The position numbers were made by a program, and so were the translations under genes. Shown piece by piece: positions 4,597 to 59,923 of a DNA stretch of 64,000 nucleotides. The notes below the pieces were generated by a model, which was not told where the DNA came from, searched no databases, and saw only the letters and a program-made list of their open reading frames with translations. The stretch lies in assembly GCA_013335095.1 (NCBI GenBank), contig JAAXWF010000002.1, positions 80,516-144,515 on the forward strand, given 5' to 3'. Source of the DNA: a candidate division WWE3 bacterium (GTDB lineage: Bacteria; Patescibacteriota; 4484-211; GCA-002791395). How positions within the stretch are numbered: the stretch's first letter is position 1; every line of letters begins with the position of its first letter.

Positions 4597-5631
4597 ATGC
4601 CTTATCAAAACAGAACATTACAGAATGAACGACTTACGTTTCTTTTTTCAATTGTTGGAATCCTCTCATTTTTGAGTCTCGCAACCGCTGCGCCAATAAC
4701 TTCGTCAAATAATATTTTTAATATGTTGTTTCCAAAAACTTCGGCAGATGCAAAGTCGTCAAATAATCTTAGTGCATTTTTTAGTACAAAAAATATTAAT
4801 GATGTAGCAAATGAAGATGGGCAAACACTATCAATTCCACAAGTTATTCAAGATGTGTCTTGGATTGGTTCGGGTGATACAGTGGATGATTCGTATGCTG
4901 GATTTATATTTCACCGCAAGGGATTACCGCTAAACGCATCGATTCAATCAGCATTTCTGGTATTAAAATCATCCGAAACAAATTCGACGCCCATCTCGGT
5001 AGATATATATGCTGAATCAGACAAACAGCCAGAACAATTCTCTTCTTCAAGTAAGCCGTCAGATCGGATTATAGGAACAGATGTAATAACGTATACAACC
5101 ACAAAAACATGGCGGAAGGATGAGGTTGTACTTATTAATGTAACACAAGTAATTGATCAAGCACTCACTGCCAATCCCGAGTTGCAGTCAATCTCCCTGA
5201 TAATGAAAAATACTTCTTCAGTAGCAAAACAGAGGCGGTTCTTTTATGGAAAATCAAACACGATAAAGTCACCTCGACTATTCGTTAGATACAGAATGAA
5301 TGACGTACGCACCGATAGTAATGTCACAATTCCGCCATCTTCAACGAAATTGCCGACAAGGATCCCAACCTCAATTAACATAACACCGACTCCTTATCCG
5401 ACCATAACATCAGCACAACCCATTACTGCTATACCGACACAAAGACTAAACAACTGTATTATTACTGGTTGTAGCGGGCAAATTTGTAGCGATCAAGAGA
5501 TGTATACAACATGTGAGTACAAGGACGAATATGCGTGCTATAGAAATGCGAAATGTGAACGTCAATCAAACGGGAAATGTGGCTGGACGATGGATAATAG
5601 TCTAAGTCAATGTCTCAGTTCGACACGGTAA
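4597..5631 (+). CDS. secreted hypothetical protein: signal-anchor, Thr/Pro-rich linker, C-terminal 10-Cys module
   Basis: Hydrophobic N-terminus (LTFLFSIVGILSFLSLATAAP). It is followed by 'LFPKTSADAK', a variant of the FPKKESSA motif shared with two other proteins here. There is a PT-rich linker (PTRIPTSINITPTPYPTITSAQPITAIPT) and a Cys-rich C-terminus (CIITGCSGQICSD…CEYKDEYACYRNAKCERQSNGKCGW). Confidence 0.5.
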   Translation: MPYQNRTLQNERLTFLFSIVGILSFLSLATAAPITSSNNIFNMLFPKTSADAKSSNNLSAFFSTKNINDVANEDGQTLSIPQVIQDVSWIGSGDTVDDSYAGFIFHRKGLPLNASIQSAFLVLKSSETNSTPISVDIYAESDKQPEQFSSSSKPSDRIIGTDVITYTTTKTWRKDEVVLINVTQVIDQALTANPELQSISLIMKNTSSVAKQRRFFYGKSNTIKSPRLFVRYRMNDVRTDSNVTIPPSSTKLPTRIPTSINITPTPYPTITSAQPITAIPTQRLNNCIITGCSGQICSDQEMYTTCEYKDEYACYRNAKCERQSNGKCGWTMDNSLSQCLSSTR

Positions 5632-5648
5632 TTAATGAATAACGATCA

Positions 5649-8579
5649 ATGAAGAATAGTAATACAAATAAAAACTATTTAGCTGTTATTGTTGTAGCAA
5701 CGGTATTAATGGTAACTTCAATTATAGGAATATCAACATATTATCCACCAACTAAAGGCTCCCTTTCTACTATATTTCCCAAAAAAGAATCTTCGGCACA
5801 AACCGGAACTCTTCAGGTTAGCAACAACTTAATCCTGAATCAAAATAACGAACGTTTTATCTTTAAAGGCGTCAATTTGGAATTTTACCGAGACATGAAT
5901 GTCAGTAATGTAACGTATACCGGTTGGGAAAAAAGAAATCAGATTGTTTCAAAACTAAAATCACTAGGAATAAATGCCGTACGTGTGAACTATAGATCAG
6001 ACAGTATCAAATCGACGGCAAATGGACATACAGAGAACGGAAACATCTCTCAGCTACTTGATATGCTAAAACTCTTTTCTGATAATGGTATTTATGTTAT
6101 GCCGAGTGACCACATCTTTACCGGCAATGACATAGCAAATAAAGAGAATCTTTCATTCCCAAATTTCAAGAAAGTAATTGATGATTCACGAGCTCGGGGA
6201 TATGAACACATGCTAATAATGAATCCTTACAATGAACCATATAATAACGAAAACTGGTCTGCATGGGCAAGCGAAAATAAATCTACGTTAGATTACTTGC
6301 GGTCAACGCTTCAGTTTAAGGGTCTTATAATCTTAGACAATCCATTATGGGCAGGAGCTATAAACGTAGACCAAGCAAAACAACTCCTAGCATATGACAA
6401 AACGTTACTTGGTGGCTCTACCGAATTAGCCTTTTCAAATCATTATTATCCCAATTGGGGATTAGATGGACCCAATCAAGTGATGACATCAGCAAAGTCA
6501 ATCCCTTTAATTTTAGGAGAGCTCGGCCAATGGTCTTCACAAGGATCTAATCCCAACTATGTAATATCAGTACTCGATTTACTGGTTAAGACAGGCATTC
6601 CAAATGGTCATAATGGTTTGTTCCCATGGATCTGGAATTGGAGTGATGCAAATACGATGACGAGTTCAGATCAGCTAACATTAAATAGTCATGGAGACTT
6701 ATTTGTTAATAACTATTATTCCAAAATTGTATCTAATTCGAATACTCCCGTTCCGTCTGCTGTAATAAATCCGACATCAACGCCAGTCACCGGAAACCAA
6801 TTATCCAATATCCCCTCAACAATATTAAATGGACTTCGTGAAGGTGGGGTAAATCTTGTATTTGGTTGGTGGGATCCACATGGATATGCTCCGACGGAAT
6901 TCGACGATGATCTACCAATAATAAAAGCAAAAGGTGGAGGACATATCAGACTACCTGTAAGTTCTGACTTAATTGAGGAAGGTACAACTGGTAAGGTAAA
7001 GGAAAGCACTTGGCAAGAATTAAAAACATTTATCGAAAAAGCAAAGAGCAATGGCTTAGTCACAGTAATTGATTTGCATCACCTCGGCGTATTTTCTTTA
7101 GATTACTATCAAGGGAAGTCAACTGATACAAGCTGGACTGATTTTATGGATAAAATAAGATACACAGATTGGGCAGCCCGACATATATCATTATCTGAGG
7201 ACATTGCGAAACATATTAACAGAGATTTAGATAAAAGTTGGGTTGTTTTTCAACCTGCAAATGAACCAATATTTACCGGAAACAATGAACCGCAGATTTG
7301 GTATAACCACCAAAATAAACTAATACCTGCAATTCGTCGCGGTTGCAGCGACTGCACTATCTTTATCATGTCGCACTCCTGGCAAAGCATTGGTGCAACC
7401 GTAGATAATATGAACTTCTCTCAAATGCAATGGTGGGACAATAAGATGATCATTGACATGCATTACTATTCACCACTAGACCTAACGCATTGTGGATATA
7501 CTTCGAGTACGAATAATTGTGCTGGAAAACAATGGCCGGGAACATATACAGGTTGGACGACATTCGGTACTGAACATAACGGCACATGGGATAAAACATT
7601 TCTTGAAAGAGAATTTAAGCGGGTGTGGGATTATCAACAGAAAAACCCTGGTGTAGTAGTGCATTTTAGCGAGATAGGAACTCACTCGGGGCTAGAAGAT
7701 ATAACTCGATCTGCATATCTACGCGATGTGACATCAATACTAAGCGCCAATGGAGTTGGCTGGTCATGCTGGGAGTGGGATAAGAACTTTGGAATCATTA
7801 ATCATCCCAAAACGATTGAAGCATGTTTAGGTACAACCGGAATGTCGGTATCGCCATATCCAACATCGCAAGCTTCAATCACACCTACTCCGACATTACA
7901 TGTAAGCAATTCACCGACCCCGTCAACAACGCTTGCTCCAACTCAAACTCCTAGTGCTGGTTTTTATAGAGGAATCAATCTTGGTGGTACAGATATAGCA
8001 ATTAACGGAAACACCTGGTCTGGTGAAGCTACTGCTAATATAAGCGCACTTGGAACGTCAAAGTCAAACCAGTGGTTGAATTTAAATCCATCTGCTGACG
8101 CACAAATGACAAAAATGCTGCAAGACTGGCAAGAGCACTGGAATCATGAGATTACTATTAATAATATTGCTCCTGGTAAATATCGTTTATATGTTTATGG
8201 AGTAATGGATTGGAATGATTCAAATGCACAAACAATTACAAGCTATGTAAATAATCAGAGAATAGGAGAGTGGAAACCAGCTACGAGTGGATCATGGGTT
8301 AAGATGGGACCATGGGATGGGTTAATAACTAATGGAACGGCAACGATTACGACTAGTGCAACTAATAACAAACTTGCTGGAATAGAGATTTATCGTCTTT
8401 TAAGAGCTGATATAAATAACGATGGGATTGTTAACATTTTTGATCTTGGATTACTTTCAGTACATTATGGCGAGCAGTTAACAACATCCAGTGACGCTAT
8501 TGTTCGTAACTGCGATATTAATCAAGATAATGTAATTAATGTTTTCGATGTATCAATCCTAATACAAGAATATAAATAG
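5649..8579 (+). CDS. secreted multidomain glycoside hydrolase: two GH5-like (clan GH-A) catalytic domains, a putative carbohydrate-binding beta-sandwich, and a C-terminal type-I-dockerin-like module
   Basis: Signal-anchor (LAVIVVATVLMVTSIIGI). Domain 1: 'FKGVNLEFY…GINAVRVNY…IMNPYNEPYNNENW' (NEP acid/base) and 'ILGELGQWSS' (GExG-type nucleophile context). Domain 2: 'GHIRLPVSSD…VIDLHH…VFQPANEPIFTG…VHFSEIGTHSG'. The C-terminus 'DINNDGIVNIFDLGLLSVHYGE…CDINQDNVINVFDVSILIQEY' has two Ca-binding-loop-like dockerin segments. Confidence 0.75.
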   Translation: MKNSNTNKNYLAVIVVATVLMVTSIIGISTYYPPTKGSLSTIFPKKESSAQTGTLQVSNNLILNQNNERFIFKGVNLEFYRDMNVSNVTYTGWEKRNQIVSKLKSLGINAVRVNYRSDSIKSTANGHTENGNISQLLDMLKLFSDNGIYVMPSDHIFTGNDIANKENLSFPNFKKVIDDSRARGYEHMLIMNPYNEPYNNENWSAWASENKSTLDYLRSTLQFKGLIILDNPLWAGAINVDQAKQLLAYDKTLLGGSTELAFSNHYYPNWGLDGPNQVMTSAKSIPLILGELGQWSSQGSNPNYVISVLDLLVKTGIPNGHNGLFPWIWNWSDANTMTSSDQLTLNSHGDLFVNNYYSKIVSNSNTPVPSAVINPTSTPVTGNQLSNIPSTILNGLREGGVNLVFGWWDPHGYAPTEFDDDLPIIKAKGGGHIRLPVSSDLIEEGTTGKVKESTWQELKTFIEKAKSNGLVTVIDLHHLGVFSLDYYQGKSTDTSWTDFMDKIRYTDWAARHISLSEDIAKHINRDLDKSWVVFQPANEPIFTGNNEPQIWYNHQNKLIPAIRRGCSDCTIFIMSHSWQSIGATVDNMNFSQMQWWDNKMIIDMHYYSPLDLTHCGYTSSTNNCAGKQWPGTYTGWTTFGTEHNGTWDKTFLEREFKRVWDYQQKNPGVVVHFSEIGTHSGLEDITRSAYLRDVTSILSANGVGWSCWEWDKNFGIINHPKTIEACLGTTGMSVSPYPTSQASITPTPTLHVSNSPTPSTTLAPTQTPSAGFYRGINLGGTDIAINGNTWSGEATANISALGTSKSNQWLNLNPSADAQMTKMLQDWQEHWNHEITINNIAPGKYRLYVYGVMDWNDSNAQTITSYVNNQRIGEWKPATSGSWVKMGPWDGLITNGTATITTSATNNKLAGIEIYRLLRADINNDGIVNIFDLGLLSVHYGEQLTTSSDAIVRNCDINQDNVINVFDVSILIQEYK
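8397..8576 (+). other. dockerin type-I-like duplicated Ca2+-binding segment (C-terminus of the GH5 protein)
   Basis: Two copies of D-x-N-x-D-G/N-x-V-N-x-x-D followed by hydrophobic helices (DINNDGIVNIFDLGLL / DINQDNVINVFDVSIL). Confidence 0.6.
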
Positions 8580-36260: not shown

Positions 36261-38480
36261 ATGACGCCACCTCGGATAGAAAGATTTAAGCCCGATGACG
36301 AATTTGAACCCGGTGAGCAAGAGGCTAAAGAACGAGAAGTTGGCGGTGAGGAAAGACGATCTCCAGTAGAAGGTGTTGATATACACGAAGAAGAAATATT
36401 AAACGATCAAATAGCACAGCAAGAAGACCGACTTGAATTATTGCAGCAGGAAGCCCATACAACCGAGGACCGACTCGCCGCGGCAAGAGCAGAACTGGGA
36501 ATAGAAACAGCTGACCCCATAACGAATCGAACAAATGCCGAGATCAATCATATTCAAGAGACATTAAAACTACTTAGATATAAACTACTAACCGTAAGAC
36601 TACGAAAACCAGAACAAACACCAACACGGGATGAAAAAGAGAAAGAACCGCGCTTACCAAAACAACCAGTAGCAACAGAAAAAGAACTTTATGCAAATCT
36701 TGGCCGAATATTAGATGCAAAACAACGAATAATATTCAATCAAATTTATCGAAGAACTCTAGGTTGGCCAACAGAAAAAAATCTCGAAGCAATGGCAGGA
36801 TTGGAGAATTGGCAATCATTAGGGTGGGAATACTATGTACTATCCGGGCGGGAAGGTTTATACAAAATGAACTTTCCGATGGTTATTGAACGTGATCCCG
36901 GAAAAACAACGCCTGTTGATAGAGCAAGTAGCTTGGCGTCTGGTGCATTAGAGTTTGCTCATCAAGTTAGAACCGGAACACTACCGCAGGAAGTAATACC
37001 GGCAACATCAACATCCCCCGAAACACCACTCGATGAAACTCAATACGCAAGAATATTTGGATCATCACGAATGCCAGGAGAACGAGTAGATAGCATCCAA
37101 CTTTCTAAAAATAATCCGACTCATTTTTTGGTTAAGGTTAAAGGTCATTATGTCAGGATCGAAGGATTCCGTGATGATGAACCAATTCCTGCTGAAGAAG
37201 TAAGGGCACAAATTGCTGCAGCGGTCGAATCAATCAACGATTTACCAGACGCACCACCAATCGGTGCGATCACCGCGGGGAACCGAAAACGAAACTTTGA
37301 ATTTCGACAACGAATACAGAGCTCGACGGCGAATCAGGAACTCCAAGATGAAATTGACCAATCACTTTTTGTCGTATGTATAGATCCCGAATCGAAACCA
37401 GATACGCTTGCCGATGAAATGGCCGAAGTAAGAGACAGCAAAGGGAAAAACCTAGGAAATCGAGAGTATAATAAAGGACTTCAAATTATTGTCAGCGGAT
37501 CGGATGAAAGAGGAGCATCAGCTGGATTTTCATTTGAACATGCACTTGTAGATGGAACTGTCGGTGGACGATTTGCTGTAGATGTATCACGAATGGCCCG
37601 ACGTATCGAGTATCAAGGAGAACCACAACGAGCAGAACAAATTGAAATTAAAGATTGGGAATCGTCTCCTCAACTCGCTGAAATGGCTCAAGCAGCACAG
37701 GCTGAGGTAGAAAAAAAATTGGAAAACAGTGATGAAACGACCTTTGAACTTGAGGGTGATTGGCTAGAGCGTTGTAAACAATTTGGTATAAAAGGTGATA
37801 CGGCATTTCAGATGGCGCTCCAAATTGCAGAGTATATGAAATATCGAAAGCCGATCTCGAATTCTGAACAAGTTAGTCTGCGAGCGTTTGAAAAAGGTCG
37901 GATTAATCCAACAGGCGTGACAACTCATGGGGTCAAAGAATTCTTGCGTGATTTTGGTGAAGTAATATCAGCAGTAGAACACGTTGAAGAAGACGGGGAC
38001 GTTGAAAAAGCCATACGCCAACCAGCATATGCAAAGCGCCTCGGACAGGCTCTGGCCAAAGCAATTCAAGATCATGAGAAAACTATCGATCTTGCCAAAT
38101 CCGGAAAAGGCGTAGAAACTCACTTAATGGCTCAATGGGCGGCATTAAACCCTAGCAATCCGAGTCTAAACGCCGAGGCTCAAACCGCAGCAGATAACCT
38201 TTTTCGAAATCCCGCGATGGGTGTACGTTCATTCCTACAACCTATTTTAGTTAGTTCAAACTTAAGACCACGTTCCGATCGTGGAGAGGTGGTTGCGGCA
38301 GGGACAAAGCCTTCTCGAAGTAAAAGAGGAAATCTGTCATTAGGATATTTATTACAAGGTAGAAAAATCTCGGTAAATGCCCGCACCGAGGGTAAGATGA
38401 AGGATCATGCCGAAGATATTAGCCACTATCTTGAATCGGCGCTTAATATTGTCGCTGAACTTGCTCCATATACTCAATAA
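36261..38480 (+). CDS. choline/carnitine O-acyltransferase family (Carn_acyltransf-like) protein with ~150-aa acidic coiled N-extension
   Basis: 'YARIFGSSRMPGERVDSIQLSKNNPTHFLVKVKGHYVRIEGFRDDEPIPAEEVRAQI' parallels the family region '…Q..kiFstcRiPg...Dsi.....+.p.HivV..rg.fy.l.v...dG.pl...ei..Ql'. 'GFSFEHALVDGTVGGRF' matches the catalytic-His motif hEHxxxDG of carnitine/choline acyltransferases. GC is visibly higher (~45%+) than the flanks. Confidence 0.55.
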   Translation: MTPPRIERFKPDDEFEPGEQEAKEREVGGEERRSPVEGVDIHEEEILNDQIAQQEDRLELLQQEAHTTEDRLAAARAELGIETADPITNRTNAEINHIQETLKLLRYKLLTVRLRKPEQTPTRDEKEKEPRLPKQPVATEKELYANLGRILDAKQRIIFNQIYRRTLGWPTEKNLEAMAGLENWQSLGWEYYVLSGREGLYKMNFPMVIERDPGKTTPVDRASSLASGALEFAHQVRTGTLPQEVIPATSTSPETPLDETQYARIFGSSRMPGERVDSIQLSKNNPTHFLVKVKGHYVRIEGFRDDEPIPAEEVRAQIAAAVESINDLPDAPPIGAITAGNRKRNFEFRQRIQSSTANQELQDEIDQSLFVVCIDPESKPDTLADEMAEVRDSKGKNLGNREYNKGLQIIVSGSDERGASAGFSFEHALVDGTVGGRFAVDVSRMARRIEYQGEPQRAEQIEIKDWESSPQLAEMAQAAQAEVEKKLENSDETTFELEGDWLERCKQFGIKGDTAFQMALQIAEYMKYRKPISNSEQVSLRAFEKGRINPTGVTTHGVKEFLRDFGEVISAVEHVEEDGDVEKAIRQPAYAKRLGQALAKAIQDHEKTIDLAKSGKGVETHLMAQWAALNPSNPSLNAEAQTAADNLFRNPAMGVRSFLQPILVSSNLRPRSDRGEVVAAGTKPSRSKRGNLSLGYLLQGRKISVNARTEGKMKDHAEDISHYLESALNIVAELAPYTQ

Positions 38481-38510
38481 AAAACCGCCAAAGAAGGCGG
38501 TTTGGCAAAA
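38481..38510. terminator. bidirectional rho-independent terminator between convergent genes
   Basis: A perfect hairpin aaccgcc-aaagaa-ggcggtt (38483-38502) is flanked by A-run upstream and T-containing tract downstream. Read on the - strand it is followed by TTTTTTATT, which is strong for the - gene 38520..39179. Confidence 0.5.
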
Positions 38511-38519
38511 TAACGGCAG

Positions 38520-39179
38520 CTATTTTGCAATTTGGTCGATACGTTGTCTTATTCCTGCAATTCGTCGACTGAGTTGATCACGTCGGCGTCCGAGATCTCG
38601 TGATTCTAACATCAGTTGAAGGCGTTGAGTGTCGATCTCGATACGTTCCTGTAGTAGGGCTTGATAATTAGGTTCGGCATCGGGGCGTTGATCCTGACGT
38701 GATTGCATAAGCGACACGATATGCTCCGGGGATAGAGCAATGATCTCACACGAAGAGACCTGCTGTTTCGTAAGATGATGCTCATAACCTCCTTTGACTG
38801 AATTCCATCGGATCCAGGTATGAGCTCCCACGACTTTGTGCCCCAGACCGAAAAAAGGTTCCCGCCACGAAATCCCAACGCCAACACGCAGCATTATCCG
38901 CTGATAGGCAATAATCAATCGGAATTGGTTGTGCAGATAAGCCGCGCTTCCAAAAGCATGACTCATCTCATGGAGCACAACCGGCCACAACTGCCATTCA
39001 CCCAATACAAGAAAGTCACCGAGATATGTTGGATGTTGGAAGGTAAAAAGCAAAGATCGACGGGCTGATGGCCCAGACAATTTCTGGCTTTCAAATACGA
39101 CCAAGGGCTGTTGCGTGATGTAGGGAATCCGGGCGACGATAGCATGTACGATTTGTGGATCAGACATACGATCCTCCAT
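38520..39179 (-). CDS. HExxH-motif putative zinc metallohydrolase (possibly DUF45/YgjP-like) with C-terminal coiled-coil tail
   Basis: 'VLHEMSHAFGSAAYLHNQF' is H-E-x-x-H plus a third His spaced as in YgjP/DUF45-type metal sites. The C-terminal 60 aa are R/Q/L-rich heptad-like. No TM. Family assignment is tentative. Confidence 0.45.
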   Translation of the reverse strand: MEDRMSDPQIVHAIVARIPYITQQPLVVFESQKLSGPSARRSLLFTFQHPTYLGDFLVLGEWQLWPVVLHEMSHAFGSAAYLHNQFRLIIAYQRIMLRVGVGISWREPFFGLGHKVVGAHTWIRWNSVKGGYEHHLTKQQVSSCEIIALSPEHIVSLMQSRQDQRPDAEPNYQALLQERIEIDTQRLQLMLESRDLGRRRDQLSRRIAGIRQRIDQIAK

Positions 39180-39308
39180 AGATACAATGTGCCAATACGC
39201 TTCGCTGAGTGAATGCTATCAAAGTTTTAAGTTTTTCTCAAATTGAATTGAAAGTAAAAAGAATCAGGAGCCAGCATCCAGCCGGCTCCTGTGATTTATG
39301 CGTACAAA

Positions 39309-40460
39309 CTATTCCGCCGAGACCTCCTCAGCGACTTCTGCTGGCCCCTCGGCCAGGCCGTCCTCAGCCTCCGTTTCTGCGGGCTGCGCCACGGCAGCCT
39401 TGCCCGGAGCCTCCATCGCTCCGACGCAGTCACGAAGAAGTTGGATGGCCGGATCCAGTCGAATCTTGGTGCGAAGATCAGGCCGGTCCTGGGGGATCGG
39501 CGATGTCCTACTGCCATTCAGCAGATGTGGTACGTATGGATTCCCCCCCTTGGTCGGAGTGACCAAGTGAGCAAACCACACACCAACCATCTGCAGCGCC
39601 TCGGCCTCCTCGTCGGTCAGATCCTGACCCCGCAGCCGAGCTTCGGTCTTACGAACCGATGCAATGAGCCCCGGAACCTCGCGCAGGTCCCGAATGCCGC
39701 ACGCCAGAATACCAAAGTGCCCCTTGTCGATGACGACACTAAGGGCAACATCGACCTTGGCCTTTGCCGCAGTCCTCCGAAGTGGGCTAGCCAAATTGTC
39801 AGGGGTGACAATCAGACCGATACGCCGACCGTTCGGCAGCACTTCAACCAGAATCAGTGGCTCCGCAGTGTTAGAAGGGCGCTTGATCTGGCTAACGACG
39901 AGCGGACGCACCAGGGCCGCCTGGTTTTGGCGGCGGGTGTTCGCCCGAATTGAATCGACATAGGTGCGAGCGAATTGGAGAACCTCATCATCTGAGGAAT
40001 CCTCCATACCCAAAATCGCCCCAGCCAGAGTCGCCCAGCGGCTATGAAGTTCACCGGTGTCCGATAGGGTGGCCAGGTTCACGACATCCCGGTAGTCGCC
40101 CAGGGGTGACTGAGGATGGGTAAACATATTCCGCGTCAGTCGGTTGAACTTGGCTGCCGCCGACGGGTCTTTCCCATCGTGGTGATCGAGTTTAGAATCA
40201 GGACCACCGCAGTCACAGAACCAATAGGCGACGAAGTTCACCATCGTATAGTATCCATCCGGCCGAGGCCTGATGACTTTACCATTCGACAGACGGTACT
40301 CCGTACCCTGCGGAATAAGCCGAAGCTCGATCGGCCCCTCAAATCGGAGCTGCTCACGAATGAAGTCCTGAGCCATCAGCATAGTGATGATGGCATCGGC
40401 ATCTCTGTGCCCCAAAAGCACGTGACGCTCAATCCTTCCGGCACCATTCACCGGGGGCAT
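39309..40460 (-). CDS. hypothetical protein (383 aa) in a ~60% GC segment; acidic Ala/Glu-rich C-terminal tail
   Basis: Longest ORF in a region where high GC produces many overlapping shadow ORFs on both strands. It has a strong SD (aaggaggg) 4 nt upstream of the ATG at 40460. No family recognised. Confidence 0.5.
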   Translation of the reverse strand: MPPVNGAGRIERHVLLGHRDADAIITMLMAQDFIREQLRFEGPIELRLIPQGTEYRLSNGKVIRPRPDGYYTMVNFVAYWFCDCGGPDSKLDHHDGKDPSAAAKFNRLTRNMFTHPQSPLGDYRDVVNLATLSDTGELHSRWATLAGAILGMEDSSDDEVLQFARTYVDSIRANTRRQNQAALVRPLVVSQIKRPSNTAEPLILVEVLPNGRRIGLIVTPDNLASPLRRTAAKAKVDVALSVVIDKGHFGILACGIRDLREVPGLIASVRKTEARLRGQDLTDEEAEALQMVGVWFAHLVTPTKGGNPYVPHLLNGSRTSPIPQDRPDLRTKIRLDPAIQLLRDCVGAMEAPGKAAVAQPAETEAEDGLAEGPAEVAEEVSAE

Positions 40461-40559
40461 GGCTCCCTCCTTATTGCGTCGTTATCAAGACGCAAACATA
40501 TTGGATGTGCGAAACAGAATAATTATAGCAAAATAATGCAAAGAAATAAACTATAGGAT

Positions 40560-40598
40560 AACAACTATAAACGCCACTGATAATAAACCAGCGGCGTC
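40560..40598 (-). terminator. probable rho-independent terminator downstream of the RRM-protein gene
   Basis: Hairpin acgccactg / cagcggcgt (9 bp with one G·U-compatible position on the - strand transcript), loop ataataaac, followed on the - strand by a T-rich tract ttatagttgtt. Confidence 0.35.
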
Positions 40599-40614
40599 AT
40601 AGTTTGATAGGTTG

Positions 40615-40887
40615 TTACTCACCGTTGTTGTTTTGGTTACGCTCAGGACGAGCTTCATTAACAACCAATGGGCGACCACCAAAATCCTTCTCATGAAACA
40701 TTTGAATAGCTGCTTGAGCAGCTTCTGGAGTTGCCATTTCAACAAACCCAAAACCGCGACTTCTTCCAGTATCACGATCAAGAATAACTTTAGCTGACTT
40801 TACTTCACCAGCTGCTGAAAAAGCTTGCATGAGCTCTTCATCAGTAGTCGAAAACGGCAGATTACCAATATATAGTCGTAAATTCAT
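40615..40887 (-). CDS. RNA-binding protein, single RRM domain (glycine-poor short form)
   Basis: RNP-2 'LYIGNLPF' and RNP-1 'RGFGFVEM' at canonical spacing. Confidence 0.85.
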   Translation of the reverse strand: MNLRLYIGNLPFSTTDEELMQAFSAAGEVKSAKVILDRDTGRSRGFGFVEMATPEAAQAAIQMFHEKDFGGRPLVVNEARPERNQNNNGE

Positions 40888-41147
40888 CGTTGATCACCCC
40901 CTTTCGGGCAGCAATACTCTATCTAAGATTTGAAAAGAAGTCACGGAGAAACCATCGAAAGTAAGGTTAATTACGTCAATCATCGAAACCAAATAACAAC
41001 ACTCTTAAACAATAGTCTTATTATAGCGCACATACATATTTCAATCTAGTCAATCTCAAAAGTGCTCACACATACACAAGAAAAAACAACGCGCGATTAA
41101 AATATTTTAAAAATCATGAAACATTCTTTCGCTTCAGTAATTACACT

Positions 41148-41756
41148 CTACGTGATCAAATTTCTAAATAGATCCAAAAATTTGGGATAATTAATATAGT
41201 AGATAAATCCAGTAAAAAGCATCAACCCGGGGAATATCACCGATTTTTCAAACATACCACCGGCTTTAACTCGTAGAGCTTTAACTGGGGGGAACCCAAA
41301 ATTCCATGGCAAGGGAAAGAGTAGCGGAACGCCTTCCTTGGTAAACGTGTCCATAAAAATATGCGAAACGAGTCCGATCATAAACGCCCACCACACCACA
41401 TTCATATCGACTACTAAAATATGCGCAATAGAACTTAGCAGCCATTGCATACCGATGCCAATAATAACTATTCCGACAATAGAGTGAGCGATCATTCGAT
41501 GTCCTCCAAAGAGTGGACTTAGAATTCTCCCCCAAATACTGCCCGCAGGAATACGCCGCCAGAGGTCAGAGGTGGGTTGATCAAGATCAGGGGCTAACCC
41601 GCCAATAAAATTAGCCGCCAATGAAACCAGCATTGTCGCCATGGTCATTTGAGGAAGGGGAGTATAAGCAGCAACGATGCTTAAGGTCGTAAATGCCGCT
41701 AAATCATGAGTTCGGGCTACCATACCATTTAGTCTAGCATAAATAATACGTGACAA
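41148..41756 (-). CDS. membrane-bound metal-dependent hydrolase, YdjM/DUF457-like
   Basis: Polytopic membrane protein with 'GGHRMIAHS' and 'SHIFMDTFTKEGVPLLFPL', characteristic of the LexA-regulated inner-membrane hydrolase family. Confidence 0.5.
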   Translation of the reverse strand: MSRIIYARLNGMVARTHDLAAFTTLSIVAAYTPLPQMTMATMLVSLAANFIGGLAPDLDQPTSDLWRRIPAGSIWGRILSPLFGGHRMIAHSIVGIVIIGIGMQWLLSSIAHILVVDMNVVWWAFMIGLVSHIFMDTFTKEGVPLLFPLPWNFGFPPVKALRVKAGGMFEKSVIFPGLMLFTGFIYYINYPKFLDLFRNLIT

Positions 41757-41842
41757 AATTTGCTTTTTTAATTGAGGATATCGGTGTTTAAGTGAAAAGT
41801 ACCCCGGACTTATCGCCAGGGGTACAGGGAACTATATTGCTC

Positions 41843-43033
41843 CTACAGGGTTCGAGGACGCATTAATGCGAGCATGGCTTCGTTTCCCTGATGCTCTCTC
41901 CGGCGTTCCTCATCACACTCCTGAGTACGCTGATTGTAAGCAGTAATCGCAATTCGAATTGCATCAAGGGTTGCAACCGCCCAATCTTCAGACAGCATGC
42001 GCTGAGCTGCTGATAGCATCCGTTCGTCATACACGCCGAATCGACTCAGATTGGTAACAGCAATGCTGGATTCGACTAATTGACGACGAATAGATGATAA
42101 CTCAGGACGATCGGCTGCATACAGATAGACCGAAGCAACCGTATGGGTATCGATAAAACGCACCCCATCAGGCCACTCTAGTTCCAGTAGAAACGCGATC
42201 TGTGCCATTATCAGTTCCCAGTCATACCGGGAACCATCAGTACGATCGACCGACCTTTCCAGCGTGTATATAAACCACGGCAAAATGAGTTCATCATCAC
42301 GTGGCAAGATTCCGTTGTAAGACAACTGCTCAACGATCAACTGCTGAACGTGCTGATTTGCCCGAGCCCTCCATTCACGAGGGGTGAGAGGATCAAGCAT
42401 AAGATCCTCAAACGGCCACCACATATCTTCCATCCCGCCATACACGGGTGTGCCCAAATCATATACAAGAAACATCCTCTCGGCTAACTCAGGATTAGCA
42501 CGAGAATGAATGCCTCGTATTATCTGGCTATACCGAATCAATAGCCAACGAGCCCGATCTCCAAATCGCTCGGGATGCTGATGAACCCATCCCGCGAAGA
42601 GCTCAATTAAGACCGCACACCACCCAATCAAACGATCGGGGATTTTGCTGCAGTCAAGCGAGTAATACGTTAAGAGACTTTCCGACGCCCCATATTGGGC
42701 AATGTCCCAATTTACGAAGGGCTGAACGAGATTCAAATCTGGTGCGAGCAATAGTAACAATGCCCGCGCACCAAACCCGACATCATACCGATCTGGCTGA
42801 CTATATAAATCAACCAGGTCGTGTAGGCTACGTGACTTATGCAAAAGCCAGCGGCGCCAAATTGAATGTTGGGTCTTAAGGATCAATTGTTCCTTAAGTG
42901 CATTACGCCAAAGAGCAACAAGCTGCTTATACACAGCGCGATCCCGTTGTGGTAAGACCCATCCCTGAAGAACCAACCGGAAGTCAGTACCCGAATGCAT
43001 GCGAAGCATAGCTCCTCCTTGTCCTAACACCAA
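41843..43033 (-). CDS. hypothetical cytoplasmic protein (396 aa), Trp/Arg-rich, moderately GC-elevated
   Basis: Long uninterrupted ORF with no recognisable motifs; composition differs from neighbouring low-GC genes. Confidence 0.45.
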   Translation of the reverse strand: MVLGQGGAMLRMHSGTDFRLVLQGWVLPQRDRAVYKQLVALWRNALKEQLILKTQHSIWRRWLLHKSRSLHDLVDLYSQPDRYDVGFGARALLLLLAPDLNLVQPFVNWDIAQYGASESLLTYYSLDCSKIPDRLIGWCAVLIELFAGWVHQHPERFGDRARWLLIRYSQIIRGIHSRANPELAERMFLVYDLGTPVYGGMEDMWWPFEDLMLDPLTPREWRARANQHVQQLIVEQLSYNGILPRDDELILPWFIYTLERSVDRTDGSRYDWELIMAQIAFLLELEWPDGVRFIDTHTVASVYLYAADRPELSSIRRQLVESSIAVTNLSRFGVYDERMLSAAQRMLSEDWAVATLDAIRIAITAYNQRTQECDEERRREHQGNEAMLALMRPRTL

Positions 43034-43125
43034 CCAGAATGGAACAATATGCGCATTCTAACACGGCTTGCTTATATTTGGACGGGATGTTGTACAATAG
43101 AGCCTGGCCGAGAGGCCGTTTTTTT

Positions 43126-50808: not shown

Positions 50809-51450
50809 TTACTTTTTTACCGTAGGAGTTGGAGAGGGCACGCTTTGCATAAATGAATTGATGTTTTTCAAAACGTCATCAATAGATCCAGAGGAACTTC
50901 CAACGATAGGGGTCGGGGAGATCGAATTCTTCGTAGAACTTTTTAATGGATATTTTGATGCAAAATAACCTAAATCATACACATCAATCTTTTTATTATC
51001 ATCAAAATCAGCTGCAGTGAACGTTGAATCTGGATTGGCTGATTCGGACTTATCATAATACGAGGCAAATAAGCCAACGTCATAAACATCAATTTCGCCA
51101 TCTCCATCAATATCCCCAGTTCCTTTTAACTCACTTCCAGCATCACCAGATGGTGTCGGAGTTAATGACGCTGCCGAAGATTCTTTTTTAGGAAACAATG
51201 TGTCTAGCTGGGTATTAATGAATGGTGCAACAGCCGCTATGGTTACGGCGAGACCAATCGTCGTTATTGAAATAACCATTGGAATACCAGTAAATTTTAT
51301 TTCACTTAACTTAGAAAAAGTCCGCAAAAATTTTTTATCCTTAGTGGGGTAAATCGGAGCATCATCGAGTGGCTGTGCATTAAAAAGATCAAGGGATTCA
51401 TTATTGGCCTGATTAATCCACAAGCTATTATTTGTATTATTATCCTGCAT
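50809..51450 (-). CDS. small membrane-anchored protein carrying a type-I-dockerin-like module and the FPKKESSA motif
   Basis: TM 'GIPMVISITTIGLAVTIAAVAPFI', then 'DTLFPKKESSAA', then dockerin-like duplicated segments 'DIDGDGEIDVYDVGLFASYY' and 'DFDDNKKIDVYDLGYFASKY' (nt ~50950-51117), with a PT-rich C-tail. Confidence 0.6.
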   Translation of the reverse strand: MQDNNTNNSLWINQANNESLDLFNAQPLDDAPIYPTKDKKFLRTFSKLSEIKFTGIPMVISITTIGLAVTIAAVAPFINTQLDTLFPKKESSAASLTPTPSGDAGSELKGTGDIDGDGEIDVYDVGLFASYYDKSESANPDSTFTAADFDDNKKIDVYDLGYFASKYPLKSSTKNSISPTPIVGSSSGSIDDVLKNINSFMQSVPSPTPTVKK

Positions 51451-57211: not shown

Positions 57212-59269
57212 CTACTTCGCTACAACCGGAATTGTTTGAATGTCGACTGAACGATTTGAGCCGTTTTCGTTCAGATTGAGTCCGAGCAACGACAGAATCC
57301 CTCCAATTGGAATTGAACCAATCAGTTGGAAGTTTGCCCGCTCACGAATCCGATTTATCGCCGAAACGACATCGGTCTCACCCTGCATAAGCTGTTCGAC
57401 CTGCTCCAAGGCATCAGCCAGGCTGAGATTCGAGAATACCCTTGGATCAATCTCACCAAGAACACCCCGTACCCGAGCCATGATCGAGACAAGACTCGAC
57501 CAAAGTTCGGTCGATTCAGGACTACCTCCACTACCAAAAAGATTACCGATTACTGGGATTTCATGCCCAACAACCGAAGCACCTTCGGATAGTGAAAGCA
57601 GCTGATTAATCAGCTGACTCATCTGACCGCCATTACCAAACAGCCTGACGTCCAGCTGAGGAGCCAGAGCTTTGAACGCCTCAAGTCGGGTTTCAGCCTG
57701 TAGCCGTGCCAGTTCGAGCTGAAGCGTATGATCCATACGAATCCGCTCAAGATCGACCAGTACGGGAGCCTCGGCGTATAGAGTAGCCAAGAGCCGCTGA
57801 GCTTCGATACTAGCGGCTTGCCTCGCCCTGTCGATCTCGACCTGGGCAAGACCTTCGGCACGAACGACCTCAACGCGCTTCTGGTCTACCGCGACCTGAG
57901 CTGCAGCAATTTCGGCAGCAGCCAAGCCTGATGCAGCTTCACGTGCTCGAGTTGCATTAGCCTCAACCAACGCAGCCTGTGCGGTGATCGTTGCCGATTC
58001 AGCCTGCGCGCGTGCCTGAGCAAGCTGAGCCTCAGTTTGTGCTCGAGTTGTAATACTCTGAGCCACGGCTTGTGATTCAGCGGCAATCCGCTCTGTTTCG
58101 GCGGCACTACCAGCAGAAATTAGCCGGACTTCTTTCTCACGCTCGGCAGCGGCTAAATCGCGTTGCCGGTCAATTGCAGTCTGCGCAGTTGTAGCTTCGC
58201 TCTGAAGCTGGATTTGAGCTGTTTGAACAGCCCGGTCCTTTTCAGCATCAGCTACGGCGCGACTCCGCGCGAGTTCAATATCTCGAGTCTGCTGAGCTGT
58301 AAGTCGCTCACCATCGAGGGCTATTTGAGCAAGCGCAGCGGAATGCTCACGCTGAGCGACGGTTTGATCACGTTCAACCTGAGCCAGGCGCAACTGGTGA
58401 GTTGCGGCGGCCAATGATTCTCGTTGATCATTCGTTGCCGTCTCAACATCGCGTTGAGTACGAAGCTCTCGCTGTTTAACATCCAGCGTTGTAGCCGTAG
58501 TCAATTCAGACTCACGGCGTGTTCTGGCATTATCGTCCTCAATGCGTGTTAATTCAGCGGCATTGATACCGATGGTCGTCTGAGCAGTAACCTCAGCCGT
58601 CGCTTGTCGAACGATTTGATCGTAGGCGTCACCGGCTAACCGGATTACACGCAAAAACGCCAAATCATAACCAAGCTCGGCCAGAGTCGTATTGACCCGG
58701 TCGGTCGCAACATCACCAAGACGTTGCATATTCGCAATAATCTCGTCGAGGGACATCGAGGCAGCCGCAACAATCAGCTGAGTCGTTGTTTCGGAGATAA
58801 TCGAGTGTACAAGACCCGACACGTCCGTACCGACACGCTGAGCAGCCACCAAGGCCTTTGACGAATCCAATTTAGCTTCGACATGAGCCCAGGCCCTAAA
58901 AGAGACCCGGTGCTTATCGAGGAGCTCAATGCCTCGCTCACCTTCACCAGAAATCTCAACGGTAAAGCTGTATGTTCGAAGCTTTACCACCTGAGCATTG
59001 GCGTTAAGCCAATAGATTGATGGCGCACCAGCGGTCTGACCGAATACGCTGGTTTCTTTACTCGGTGCCCAACTGTGAATCCCGTGGCCTACAACCACAT
59101 GGACTTCATCGGGCCGAACAATTACTCGATTACCAAAGCCAAATATGCGCCAAAATCCGCGCACGCGATCGGCTTCGGTCGAAAGAGAGGCCATAACTTC
59201 GGTGACCGACTGACCACGCCCACCCTGTGACGTATTCACGAATGATGCTCCTTCACTGTACGAATACAC
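57212..59269 (-). CDS. flotillin-like SPFH/band-7 domain protein with long Ala/Glu/Gln-rich coiled-coil
   Basis: N-terminal SPFH fold (…VKLRTYSFTVEISGEGERGIELLDKHRVSFRAWAHVEAKL…MSLDEIIANMQRLGDVATDRVNTTLAELGYDLAFLRVI…). It is followed by ~250 aa of AEAxRExE-type flotillin repeats. Distinctly GC-rich (~55%). Confidence 0.55.
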   Translation of the reverse strand: MYSYSEGASFVNTSQGGRGQSVTEVMASLSTEADRVRGFWRIFGFGNRVIVRPDEVHVVVGHGIHSWAPSKETSVFGQTAGAPSIYWLNANAQVVKLRTYSFTVEISGEGERGIELLDKHRVSFRAWAHVEAKLDSSKALVAAQRVGTDVSGLVHSIISETTTQLIVAAASMSLDEIIANMQRLGDVATDRVNTTLAELGYDLAFLRVIRLAGDAYDQIVRQATAEVTAQTTIGINAAELTRIEDDNARTRRESELTTATTLDVKQRELRTQRDVETATNDQRESLAAATHQLRLAQVERDQTVAQREHSAALAQIALDGERLTAQQTRDIELARSRAVADAEKDRAVQTAQIQLQSEATTAQTAIDRQRDLAAAEREKEVRLISAGSAAETERIAAESQAVAQSITTRAQTEAQLAQARAQAESATITAQAALVEANATRAREAASGLAAAEIAAAQVAVDQKRVEVVRAEGLAQVEIDRARQAASIEAQRLLATLYAEAPVLVDLERIRMDHTLQLELARLQAETRLEAFKALAPQLDVRLFGNGGQMSQLINQLLSLSEGASVVGHEIPVIGNLFGSGGSPESTELWSSLVSIMARVRGVLGEIDPRVFSNLSLADALEQVEQLMQGETDVVSAINRIRERANFQLIGSIPIGGILSLLGLNLNENGSNRSVDIQTIPVVAK

Positions 59270-59428: not shown

Positions 59429-59923
59429 CTAACGCTTCAAGCTAAAATACGCAATCAACCGATAATTATCGCCTTCTTTAAAATAACTCTTTCCGATCAG
59501 AGCGTTCTCGTCTATCTGAACGACTTCATCTATCGCAGGATGAAAAATTTGAGGATCGGGGATTGGATCGTACGTTAGTTTTAGTACGTCCATGTCATTC
59601 TCAATAGACCGTTCAACTGCATATTTAAACGGCCAAACATGGATACCAGCAGCATCAATCTTAGGTTTAATTTTATGCCCGAATACCCGAAGCAAAGATA
59701 GATACGAAGTAGATATGACATTATCCCCGGAGGATGTTGAACTATCGAACACTACACCCTTCCACGGACTCCAGAGAGTAGTTAGTGGATCACCGATCTT
59801 TTCATAAATAGTTTTTGGGATAAGTAATGCAATTTGACTTTTAAAATACCCATCAACACGATCGGGAACGGATCCAGTTTGAAAAGCCCGTTCGAGAAAA
59901 CCGATTTCCGAAAGTCCAGCCAT
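59429..59923 (-). CDS. hypothetical protein (164 aa)
   Basis: ORF with no recognisable motif; low-GC native composition. Confidence 0.4.
   Translation of the reverse strand: MAGLSEIGFLERAFQTGSVPDRVDGYFKSQIALLIPKTIYEKIGDPLTTLWSPWKGVVFDSSTSSGDNVISTSYLSLLRVFGHKIKPKIDAAGIHVWPFKYAVERSIENDMDVLKLTYDPIPDPQIFHPAIDEVVQIDENALIGKSYFKEGDNYRLIAYFSLKR

Follow-up and report, generated by a model that had tools for sequence, protein, structure and literature searches.

We describe here a gene from a candidate division WWE3 bacterium that encodes a large, modular glycoside hydrolase ending in a dockerin. The gene lies in a stretch of 64,000 nucleotides of contig JAAXWF010000002.1 (assembly GCA_013335095.1); this whole 64-kb stretch is called the window, and positions are counted within it unless another contig is named. 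The organism bears the NCBI name candidate division WWE3 (Katanobacteria) and is a member of the candidate phyla radiation (CPR), in agreement with the reduced-genome lineage supposed by an earlier note on this DNA. CPR bacteria, whose genomes are tiny, are believed to depend on other cells or on shared public goods.

The open reading frame (ORF) of 976 amino acids (aa) that the note had reported at 5649-8579 on the forward strand is real and intact. Its product is 100% identical to P0001, the NCBI entry 'cellulase family glycosylhydrolase [candidate division WWE3 bacterium]', and the identical protein is encoded by the independent Logan assembly of SRR11449211. It is a genuine, intact, modular enzyme of a CPR bacterium, composed of two domains of glycoside hydrolase family 5 (GH5), a carbohydrate-binding module (CBM) and a dockerin, every part of which is of a known kind. 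Its distinctive points are the lineage of the host, a fusion that joins two GH5 lineages, a malectin-like module not yet catalogued, and a comparative hint that related uncultured bacteria have very small cohesin-dockerin systems. The modules are joined by linkers rich in Pro, Thr and Ser and are arranged as follows.

5649..8579, forward strand: whole coding sequence, ATG start, 976 aa; helix, GH5, GH5, malectin-like CBM, dockerin
5676..5741, forward strand: N-terminal hydrophobic helix, aa 10-31, read from the sequence; signal peptide or signal anchor
5775..5795, forward strand: FPKKESS motif, aa 43-49, 12 residues past the helix; also present in two other envelope proteins of the window
5814..6728, forward strand: GH5 domain 1, aa ~56-360 (Pfam Cellulase, PF00150)
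6825..7883, forward strand: GH5 domain 2, aa ~393-745 (Pfam Cellulase, PF00150)
7953..8402, forward strand: malectin/CBM57-like beta-sandwich, aa 769-918, starting FYRGINLGG; no Pfam family
8406..8576, forward strand: type-I-like dockerin, aa 920-976 (Pfam Dockerin_1, PF00404)

Two GH5 domains and a malectin-like module

Both catalytic domains, put down in the earlier note as clan GH-A/GH5-like, proved to be GH5. The Pfam Cellulase family (cut-off 23.5 bits) matches domain 1 with 61.0 bits over aa 86-332 and domain 2 with 72.1 bits over about aa 423-713, and all eight GH5 signature residues are found in each: R112, H155, N195, E196 (acid/base), H265, Y267, E291 (nucleophile) and W327/W329 in domain 1, and R433, H477/H478, N538, E539 (acid/base), H605, Y607, E675 (nucleophile) and W708/W710 in domain 2. 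The motifs quoted in the note are likewise present, NEP for the acid/base at aa 195-197 and 538-540 and the nucleophile contexts GELG (290-293) and SEIG (674-677), and they align with the catalytic Glu positions of solved GH5 enzymes. In domain 1, the signature residues are invariant in a 13-sequence alignment of its family (A1) and the catalytic residues align with those of 1bqc, 3wsu and 4fk9; in domain 2, NEP and SEIG align with LNEP and GEFG of 3amc. Because the GH5 residue set is complete in each, both domains should hydrolyse beta-1,4-glycans.

The nearest solved structures differ between the two domains. The A1 profile finds GH5 beta-mannanases as its best solved relatives, led by Thermobifida fusca Man5 (1bqc, E 3.6e-18) and followed by 4fk9 and 3wsu from Streptomyces and by 2whl; as a single sequence, domain 1 reaches solved structures at E 3e-4. 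For domain 2 the best relatives are the endoglucanases Cel5A of T. maritima (3amc, E 1.2e-9), CelC of C. thermocellum (1cec) and FnCel5A of F. nodosum (3nco). The likeness to the mannanases and endoglucanases lies in the eight signature residues and the aligned NEP and E-x-G motifs, although all of these solved enzymes are distant and domain 1 falls in a separate, rare clade. Since domain 1 stands nearest to GH5 beta-mannanases and domain 2 nearest to Cel5A/CelC-type GH5 endoglucanases, our best guess at the substrate would be mannan, glucomannan or beta-glucan.

The term 'tandem GH5', which suggests a duplication, does not fit. Each domain shares only ~20-25% identity with the relatives of the other, so the two are not a duplication; they belong to different GH5 lineages. 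Members of the domain 1 clade are 39-47% identical to domain 1, and a search of 185,579 species-representative genomes met them at just 8 loci, in 7 assemblies; the records bear the labels Woesebacteria, Saccharimonadia, Omnitrophota and Acidimicrobiaceae, and several others have labels that are doubtful. At L011, a related locus, two separate genes lie side by side, one for a homologue of domain 1 (P0016, 43% identity) and one for the best domain 2 homologue (51%); the WWE3 protein therefore has the appearance of two fused enzymes.

Behind the second GH5 domain, the note had proposed a beta-sandwich-like putative CBM of ~150 aa, and such a module is indeed there. Its AlphaFold2 (AF2) model, built on a six-sequence alignment, is all beta and has a predicted local distance difference test (pLDDT) value of ~90 for model residues 4-152 (aa 769-918), with a fold of the carbohydrate-binding type. 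CBM35 and CBM6 modules rank top in a Foldseek search with the model (E ~1e-5), and the fold is a malectin-type beta-sandwich; the module could be assigned to CBM6 or CBM35 neither by a sequence-profile match nor as its closest fold. When its sequence profile was run against solved structures, only noise was returned (transferrin-binding proteins, E 0.12), and it is for this reason that the module is classified by fold. Identity to known malectin/CBM57 domains is 12-16% (Xenopus malectin, 2k46; FERONIA, 6a5e; the C-terminal domains of Bacteroides GH2 beta-glucuronidases, 6d50 and 6ed1). As modelled, then, the module is malectin/CBM57-like in fold, and it is not filed as a member of CBM57/malectin because Pfam Malectin (PF11721) gave no match at E <= 1 for any of six modules.

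In an exhaustive search, 1049 representative clusters (50% identity) carry the module at E <= 0.001, frequently in two to five tandem copies. Among 56 sampled members, a type IX secretion tail is also found in 17; other carriers that were sampled (the protein set P0148-P0294) have GH26, GDSL esterase, apiosidase-like or GH5 domains. From the modelled fold it is reasonable to infer that the module binds carbohydrate, and the family, which has no model in the Pfam copy used, is a candidate new CBM family.

The dockerin and cohesin genes at related loci

The C-terminus had been read as a duplicated Ca-binding segment of the type-I-dockerin kind. Both of its Ca2+ loops, DINNDGIVNIFD (aa 921-932) and DINQDNVINVFD (aa 956-967), are intact and start 35 residues apart, with Asp or Asn at positions 1, 3, 5 and 9 and Asp at position 12. 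The Dockerin_1 score is 33.1 bits for the C-terminal fragment by itself and 30.1 for the whole protein (cut-off 22.9), and the best solved matches to the sequence are all dockerins, from 2y3n_B (E 2.4e-5) through 4fl4_A and 2vn6_B to CelD (range to 5e-3). Across the six frames of the 64 kb, a regular expression for dockerin Ca loops picked out these two loops and no others. On its sequence, the module is accepted as a type-I-like dockerin. Its AF2 model, based on a five-sequence alignment and of low confidence (mean pLDDT 62.9), would have the order loop-helix, linker helix, loop-helix, with a helix after each loop.

This arrangement recalls the cellulosomal enzymes of Clostridia (C. thermocellum and C. 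cellulolyticum GH5, GH9 and GH48 enzymes), in which one or more GH domains and a CBM are likewise followed by a C-terminal dockerin of duplicated 22-residue Ca2+-binding segments. The segment DVNLDNEVNAFD of the C. cellulolyticum Cel5A dockerin closely resembles the second segment here, DINQDNVINVFD. Positions 10-11 of the loops are hydrophobic in the WWE3 protein (IF and VF); a Ser-Thr pair at these positions is typical of C. thermocellum dockerins. The setting is different from that of the cellulosomal Clostridia, however: the protein belongs to a CPR bacterium with a small genome, the searches of the 64 kb yielded no scaffoldin or cohesin, and a single dockerin in the window is borne by an enzyme. 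The other of the two dockerin-like modules in the window belongs to a much smaller protein.

50809..51450, reverse strand: second dockerin-like protein, 213 aa; Dockerin_1 18.7 bits, E 0.002, below cut-off

Besides a single transmembrane (TM) helix and an LFPKKESSAA motif, this protein has a duplicated Ca-loop module outside the TM helix (loops beginning GDIDGDGEIDVYDVGLF and ADFDDNKKIDVYDLGYF) and a tail rich in Ser, Thr and Pro; it has no enzyme domain. It is matched by a local dockerin profile of which it is itself one of the six source sequences. A membrane-anchored dockerin free of any enzyme is an odd thing to find.

The loci of relatives provided a new observation: a gene for a homologous GH5-GH5 protein with a half-dockerin directly adjoins three cohesin genes. 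At this locus (L007, on contig CAZGEA010000002.1; GC 0.36; cluster at 8801-13614 of L007), a protein of two GH5 domains, both of the domain 1 clade, has a single dockerin-type loop at its end; its gene is followed directly downstream by three small genes for cohesins, and tRNA genes flank the cluster. The first cohesin protein has a TM helix and a Cohesin match of 21.3 bits, below the cut-off of 24.1; the second combines Cohesin (37.8 bits) with Dockerin_1 (30.2 bits), as a cohesin-dockerin adaptor; the third (Cohesin, 45.6 bits) ends in LPDTG and a TM helix, a sortase signal. A profile of the three matches the CipC cohesin 2vn5_A at E 4.5e-4. The cluster shares with the WWE3 locus the GH5 of the domain 1 family, a dockerin-type Ca loop at the end of the enzyme, low GC and small envelope-anchored proteins. 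It differs in that the L007 enzyme has the domain-1-family GH5 twice and lacks both the domain-2-type GH5 and the malectin-like module, whereas the WWE3 enzyme has both, and in that the cohesin genes of L007, one of them sortase-anchored, have no counterpart found in the window. Because its homologue adjoins three cohesin genes, a cohesin partner encoded elsewhere in the WWE3 genome is plausible for the enzyme studied here.

Three further loci show arrangements of a similar kind. At L011, a 179-aa TM protein with a subthreshold Cohesin match (15.2 bits, E 0.025) lies ahead of two GH5 genes with dockerin-like tails. At L010, a pectate-lyase-like protein with a weak precomputed Dockerin_1 match is followed by P0006 and then by a weakly cohesin-like gene, and L012 has four consecutive proteins with dockerin-like tails; L010 and L012 thus present runs of two to four carbohydrate-active enzymes with such tails. 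Apart from that of P0006, the dockerin-like tails of L010-L012 were called only by a small local profile, itself partly built from P0006, P0016 and P0018. As for the taxonomy of these records, P0012 from an 'uncultured Pseudomonadales' metagenome-assembled genome (MAG; L004) is 82% identical over 1488 aa to P0010 from 'Candidatus Woesebacteria' (L003), and for this reason third-party MAG labels, including 'Gammaproteobacteria' on L002, L005 and L007, are probably unreliable.

Neighbouring genes and other features of the window

Secretion or membrane anchoring of the enzyme is predicted from a single feature, its N-terminal hydrophobic helix (aa 10-31). A TM helix followed after 10-15 residues by [LI]FPK[KT]xS[SA] is common to the ORFs at 4597-5631, 5649-8579 and 50809-51450, in the variants MLFPKTSADA (window position 4726), TIFPKKESSAQ (5772) and TLFPKKESSAA (51198). 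It may serve as a processing or sorting signal particular to the lineage; in its place, the giants next to the enzyme gene have ordinary AxA signal-peptide sites. On either side of the enzyme gene lie the following.

4597..5631, forward strand: upstream gene, a 344-aa envelope protein, 17 nt from the enzyme gene
8614-36130, reverse strand: five tandem giant paralogues of 1675-2076 aa (domains assigned with Pfam)

The upstream gene is probably co-transcribed with the enzyme gene. In its product, a helix and the LFPK motif are followed by a beta-rich domain of unknown type and, at the C-terminus, by an eight-cysteine domain (TIGR04289-like); homologues of the protein align to the eight-cysteine domain only. 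Hundreds of small proteins have that domain too, and several of these come from CPR groups (among them Yanofskybacteria, Taylorbacteria and Staskawiczbacteria). The 344-aa protein was also considered as a cohesin and rejected, there being no Pfam Cohesin match and a probability of 0.1% in an hhalign comparison with the cohesin profile.

The five giants fill 27 kb, or 43% of the window, and all have signal peptides. Four consist of DUF2341 and six Laminin_G_3 domains; the third has six Laminin_G_3 domains and no DUF2341 match. The first is convergent with the enzyme gene and lies 34 nt from its stop codon, and a 143-aa TM protein sits between the third and the fourth.

Around the enzyme gene, 16 promoter-like sites were found against 17.0 expected from shuffled sequence, and hence no excess, and 7 terminator-like sites against 2.9; the same scan placed no terminator-like site at the ends of the gene. 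No match was obtained in tRNA and Rfam scans of the 64 kb. The G+C content per 2-kb block ranges from 35 to 51% and is ~40% near the enzyme gene. It is raised at 38500-43050, to 0.45-0.51 against ~0.40 elsewhere. Of the four long ORFs there, Pfam identifies that at 41148-41756 as a YdjM membrane protein and has no match for the other three (38520-39179, 39309-40460, 41843-43033); for 39309-40460, a search for solved relatives was negative as well. A hidden RNA gene was considered for this stretch and dismissed, as no Rfam match was found. The stretch might be foreign DNA or non-coding sequence. At its edge, at 36261-38480 on the forward strand, is a gene for a 739-aa protein that matches the choline/carnitine O-acyltransferase family (PF00755) at 232 bits and has no NCBIfam name. 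This family occurs mainly in eukaryotes. Raised G+C (0.48-0.49) is also seen in a second stretch, which holds two ORFs on the reverse strand, 57212-59269 (684 aa) and 59429-59923 (163 aa), neither with a Pfam match.

Proposed function and its alternatives

We regard it as reasonably probable that the protein is an envelope-exposed, modular, probably bifunctional beta-glycanase whose dockerin is tethered to a partner, most likely a small, anchored single-cohesin protein encoded outside the window. The N-terminal helix would carry the protein across the membrane or anchor it there. Each GH5 domain would then hydrolyse beta-1,4-linked glycans by the retaining double displacement of clan GH-A, with E196/E291 and E539/E675 as the catalytic pairs; given the nearest relatives of domain 1 (mannanases) and of domain 2 (Cel5A/CelC endoglucanases), mannan, glucomannan or beta-glucan may be cut. 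To judge from its fold, the malectin/CBM57-like module would keep the enzyme on its glycan. The dockerin would bind two Ca2+ ions and tether the enzyme to its partner, which by analogy with L007 could be a membrane- or wall-anchored protein with one cohesin. As a result, sugars would be released at the surface of a cell with very little biosynthetic capacity of its own.

Several results weigh against this proposal, among them the cohesin searches. The earlier note had seen no obvious cohesin in the window, and this was borne out: Pfam Cohesin (PF00963) had no match in the giants or in the window ORFs of at least 100 aa judged likely to be genes (a set without shorter and some overlapping ORFs), a profile of the L007 cohesins gave nothing above noise in all six frames of the window (best E 0.7-2.8), and hhalign of the cohesin profile with the two genes adjacent to the enzyme gene was negative. 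Within the window, these searches found neither a cohesin-bearing scaffoldin nor an anchoring protein with a cohesin; the window has no LPXTG protein either. A metagenome scan with the L007 cohesin profile produced 497 pattern matches, none of them confirmed. The comparative evidence has weak points too. Where Pfam was run on L010-L012, no Dockerin_1 match reached the cut-off (12.1 bits at L012, EF-hand traces only at L011), the cohesin-like calls at L010 and L011 are below threshold, and the 'Gammaproteobacteria' label on the L007 record is doubtful. The solved relatives behind the substrate guess are distant. Finally, the fold search with the low-confidence dockerin model did not separate dockerin from EF-hand: nothing was returned at E <= 0.001, and the EF-hand protein caltractin (E 0.023) came ahead of the dockerin 4fl4_J (E 0.046).

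The alternative that survives best is a dockerin that works without a cohesin, as a Ca2+-dependent adhesin or stabilising module which binds another dockerin or else glycans or proteins of the host cell surface. In that case the enzyme would belong to a surface with which an episymbiont attaches to its host and harvests host glycans, and not to a scaffolded complex. The note's statement that dockerins imply a cohesin-bearing partner is too strong in this respect, since PMC10066038 (citing Peer et al., 2009) describes non-cellulosomal dockerins as possible adhesin-like modules and enrichment in one of the two module classes only is reported to be common among microbial species (bioRxiv 10.1101/680553). 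In Saccharibacteria, a dockerin-domain envelope protein (SEML1_0315 of Southlakia epibionticum) is essential and has been speculated to target host glycans (PMC10633639). The failure to find a cohesin in the window would also be in line with such a role, as would the second dockerin-like module, which sits on a small enzyme-free TM protein and looks more like a general surface module. Yet the homologous enzyme of L007 adjoins genuine cohesins, both Ca loops, together with their hydrophobic residues 10 and 11, resemble those of cohesin-binding dockerins such as 2vn6_B, and no non-cohesin ligand of a dockerin can be named. We therefore hold the cohesin-free role to be possible and rather unlikely.

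The literature also bears on the view that such a protein is unusual for the lineage. Dockerin-like or cellulosome-related genes had already been noted in the CPR phyla SR1 and OD1 (PMC3812714), SEML1_0315 is a further case (PMC10633639), and GH5 genes are frequent in CPR genomes (PMC12153355), so the claim is too strong. SEML1_0315 and the products of the SR1/OD1 genes resemble the WWE3 enzyme in belonging to CPR bacteria, in their envelope location and in the role proposed for them, to bind or degrade glycans; these reports are purely annotation-based and deal with other phyla, and the likeness drawn here is one of description, not of sequence. For WWE3 itself, no literature account of GH5/dockerin proteins was found.

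A generic EF-hand-type Ca2+ site, which would merely stabilise the protein and have no part in docking, is a much weaker candidate for the C-terminal segment. It gains from the ranking of caltractin ahead of 4fl4_J in the fold search, made with a model of low confidence. By sequence, the dockerins mentioned above (E 2.4e-5 to 5e-3) stand well clear of calmodulin-type EF-hands (E >= 0.18), Dockerin_1 exceeds its curated cut-off, and no EF-hand Pfam family matched the 976-aa protein at E <= 1. Asp at loop position 12 is dockerin-like, EF-hands usually having Glu there, and the absence of an entering helix is another dockerin trait. In the face of these points we consider the EF-hand explanation very improbable. 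Least credible of all are the giants as the anchors bound by the dockerin, as the earlier note had suggested from their position beside the enzyme gene: their signal peptides would suit a surface role, but they are DUF2341/Laminin_G_3 proteins in which no Cohesin was found at E <= 0.1, the cohesin profile gave noise, hhalign with the adjacent giant returned a probability of 0.1%, and because they lie on the opposite strand they are not in the operon of the enzyme.

If the preferred reading, a dockerin-tethered glycanase with a cohesin partner encoded outside the window, is carried further, WWE3 and related ultra-small bacteria could possess a minimal cohesin-dockerin surface system, made up of one or a few TM- or sortase-anchored single-cohesin proteins and a handful of dockerin-tailed glycanases, two of which have been fused here; the dockerins, including that encoded at 50809-51450, could also dock onto the host. 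We offer this extension tentatively and think it doubtful as a whole. Were it true, the system would be the smallest known cellulosome-like apparatus and possibly a device of episymbiosis. Should a cohesin partner exist, it would make for a very reduced cohesin-dockerin assembly, informative on how such systems arise and a source of compact building blocks from which enzyme complexes could be designed. With its rare GH5 clade and uncatalogued malectin-like module, the enzyme itself would be worth characterising biochemically. That a large modular glycanase carries a docking module indicates that some CPR bacteria put resources into retaining the breakdown of polymers at the cell surface.

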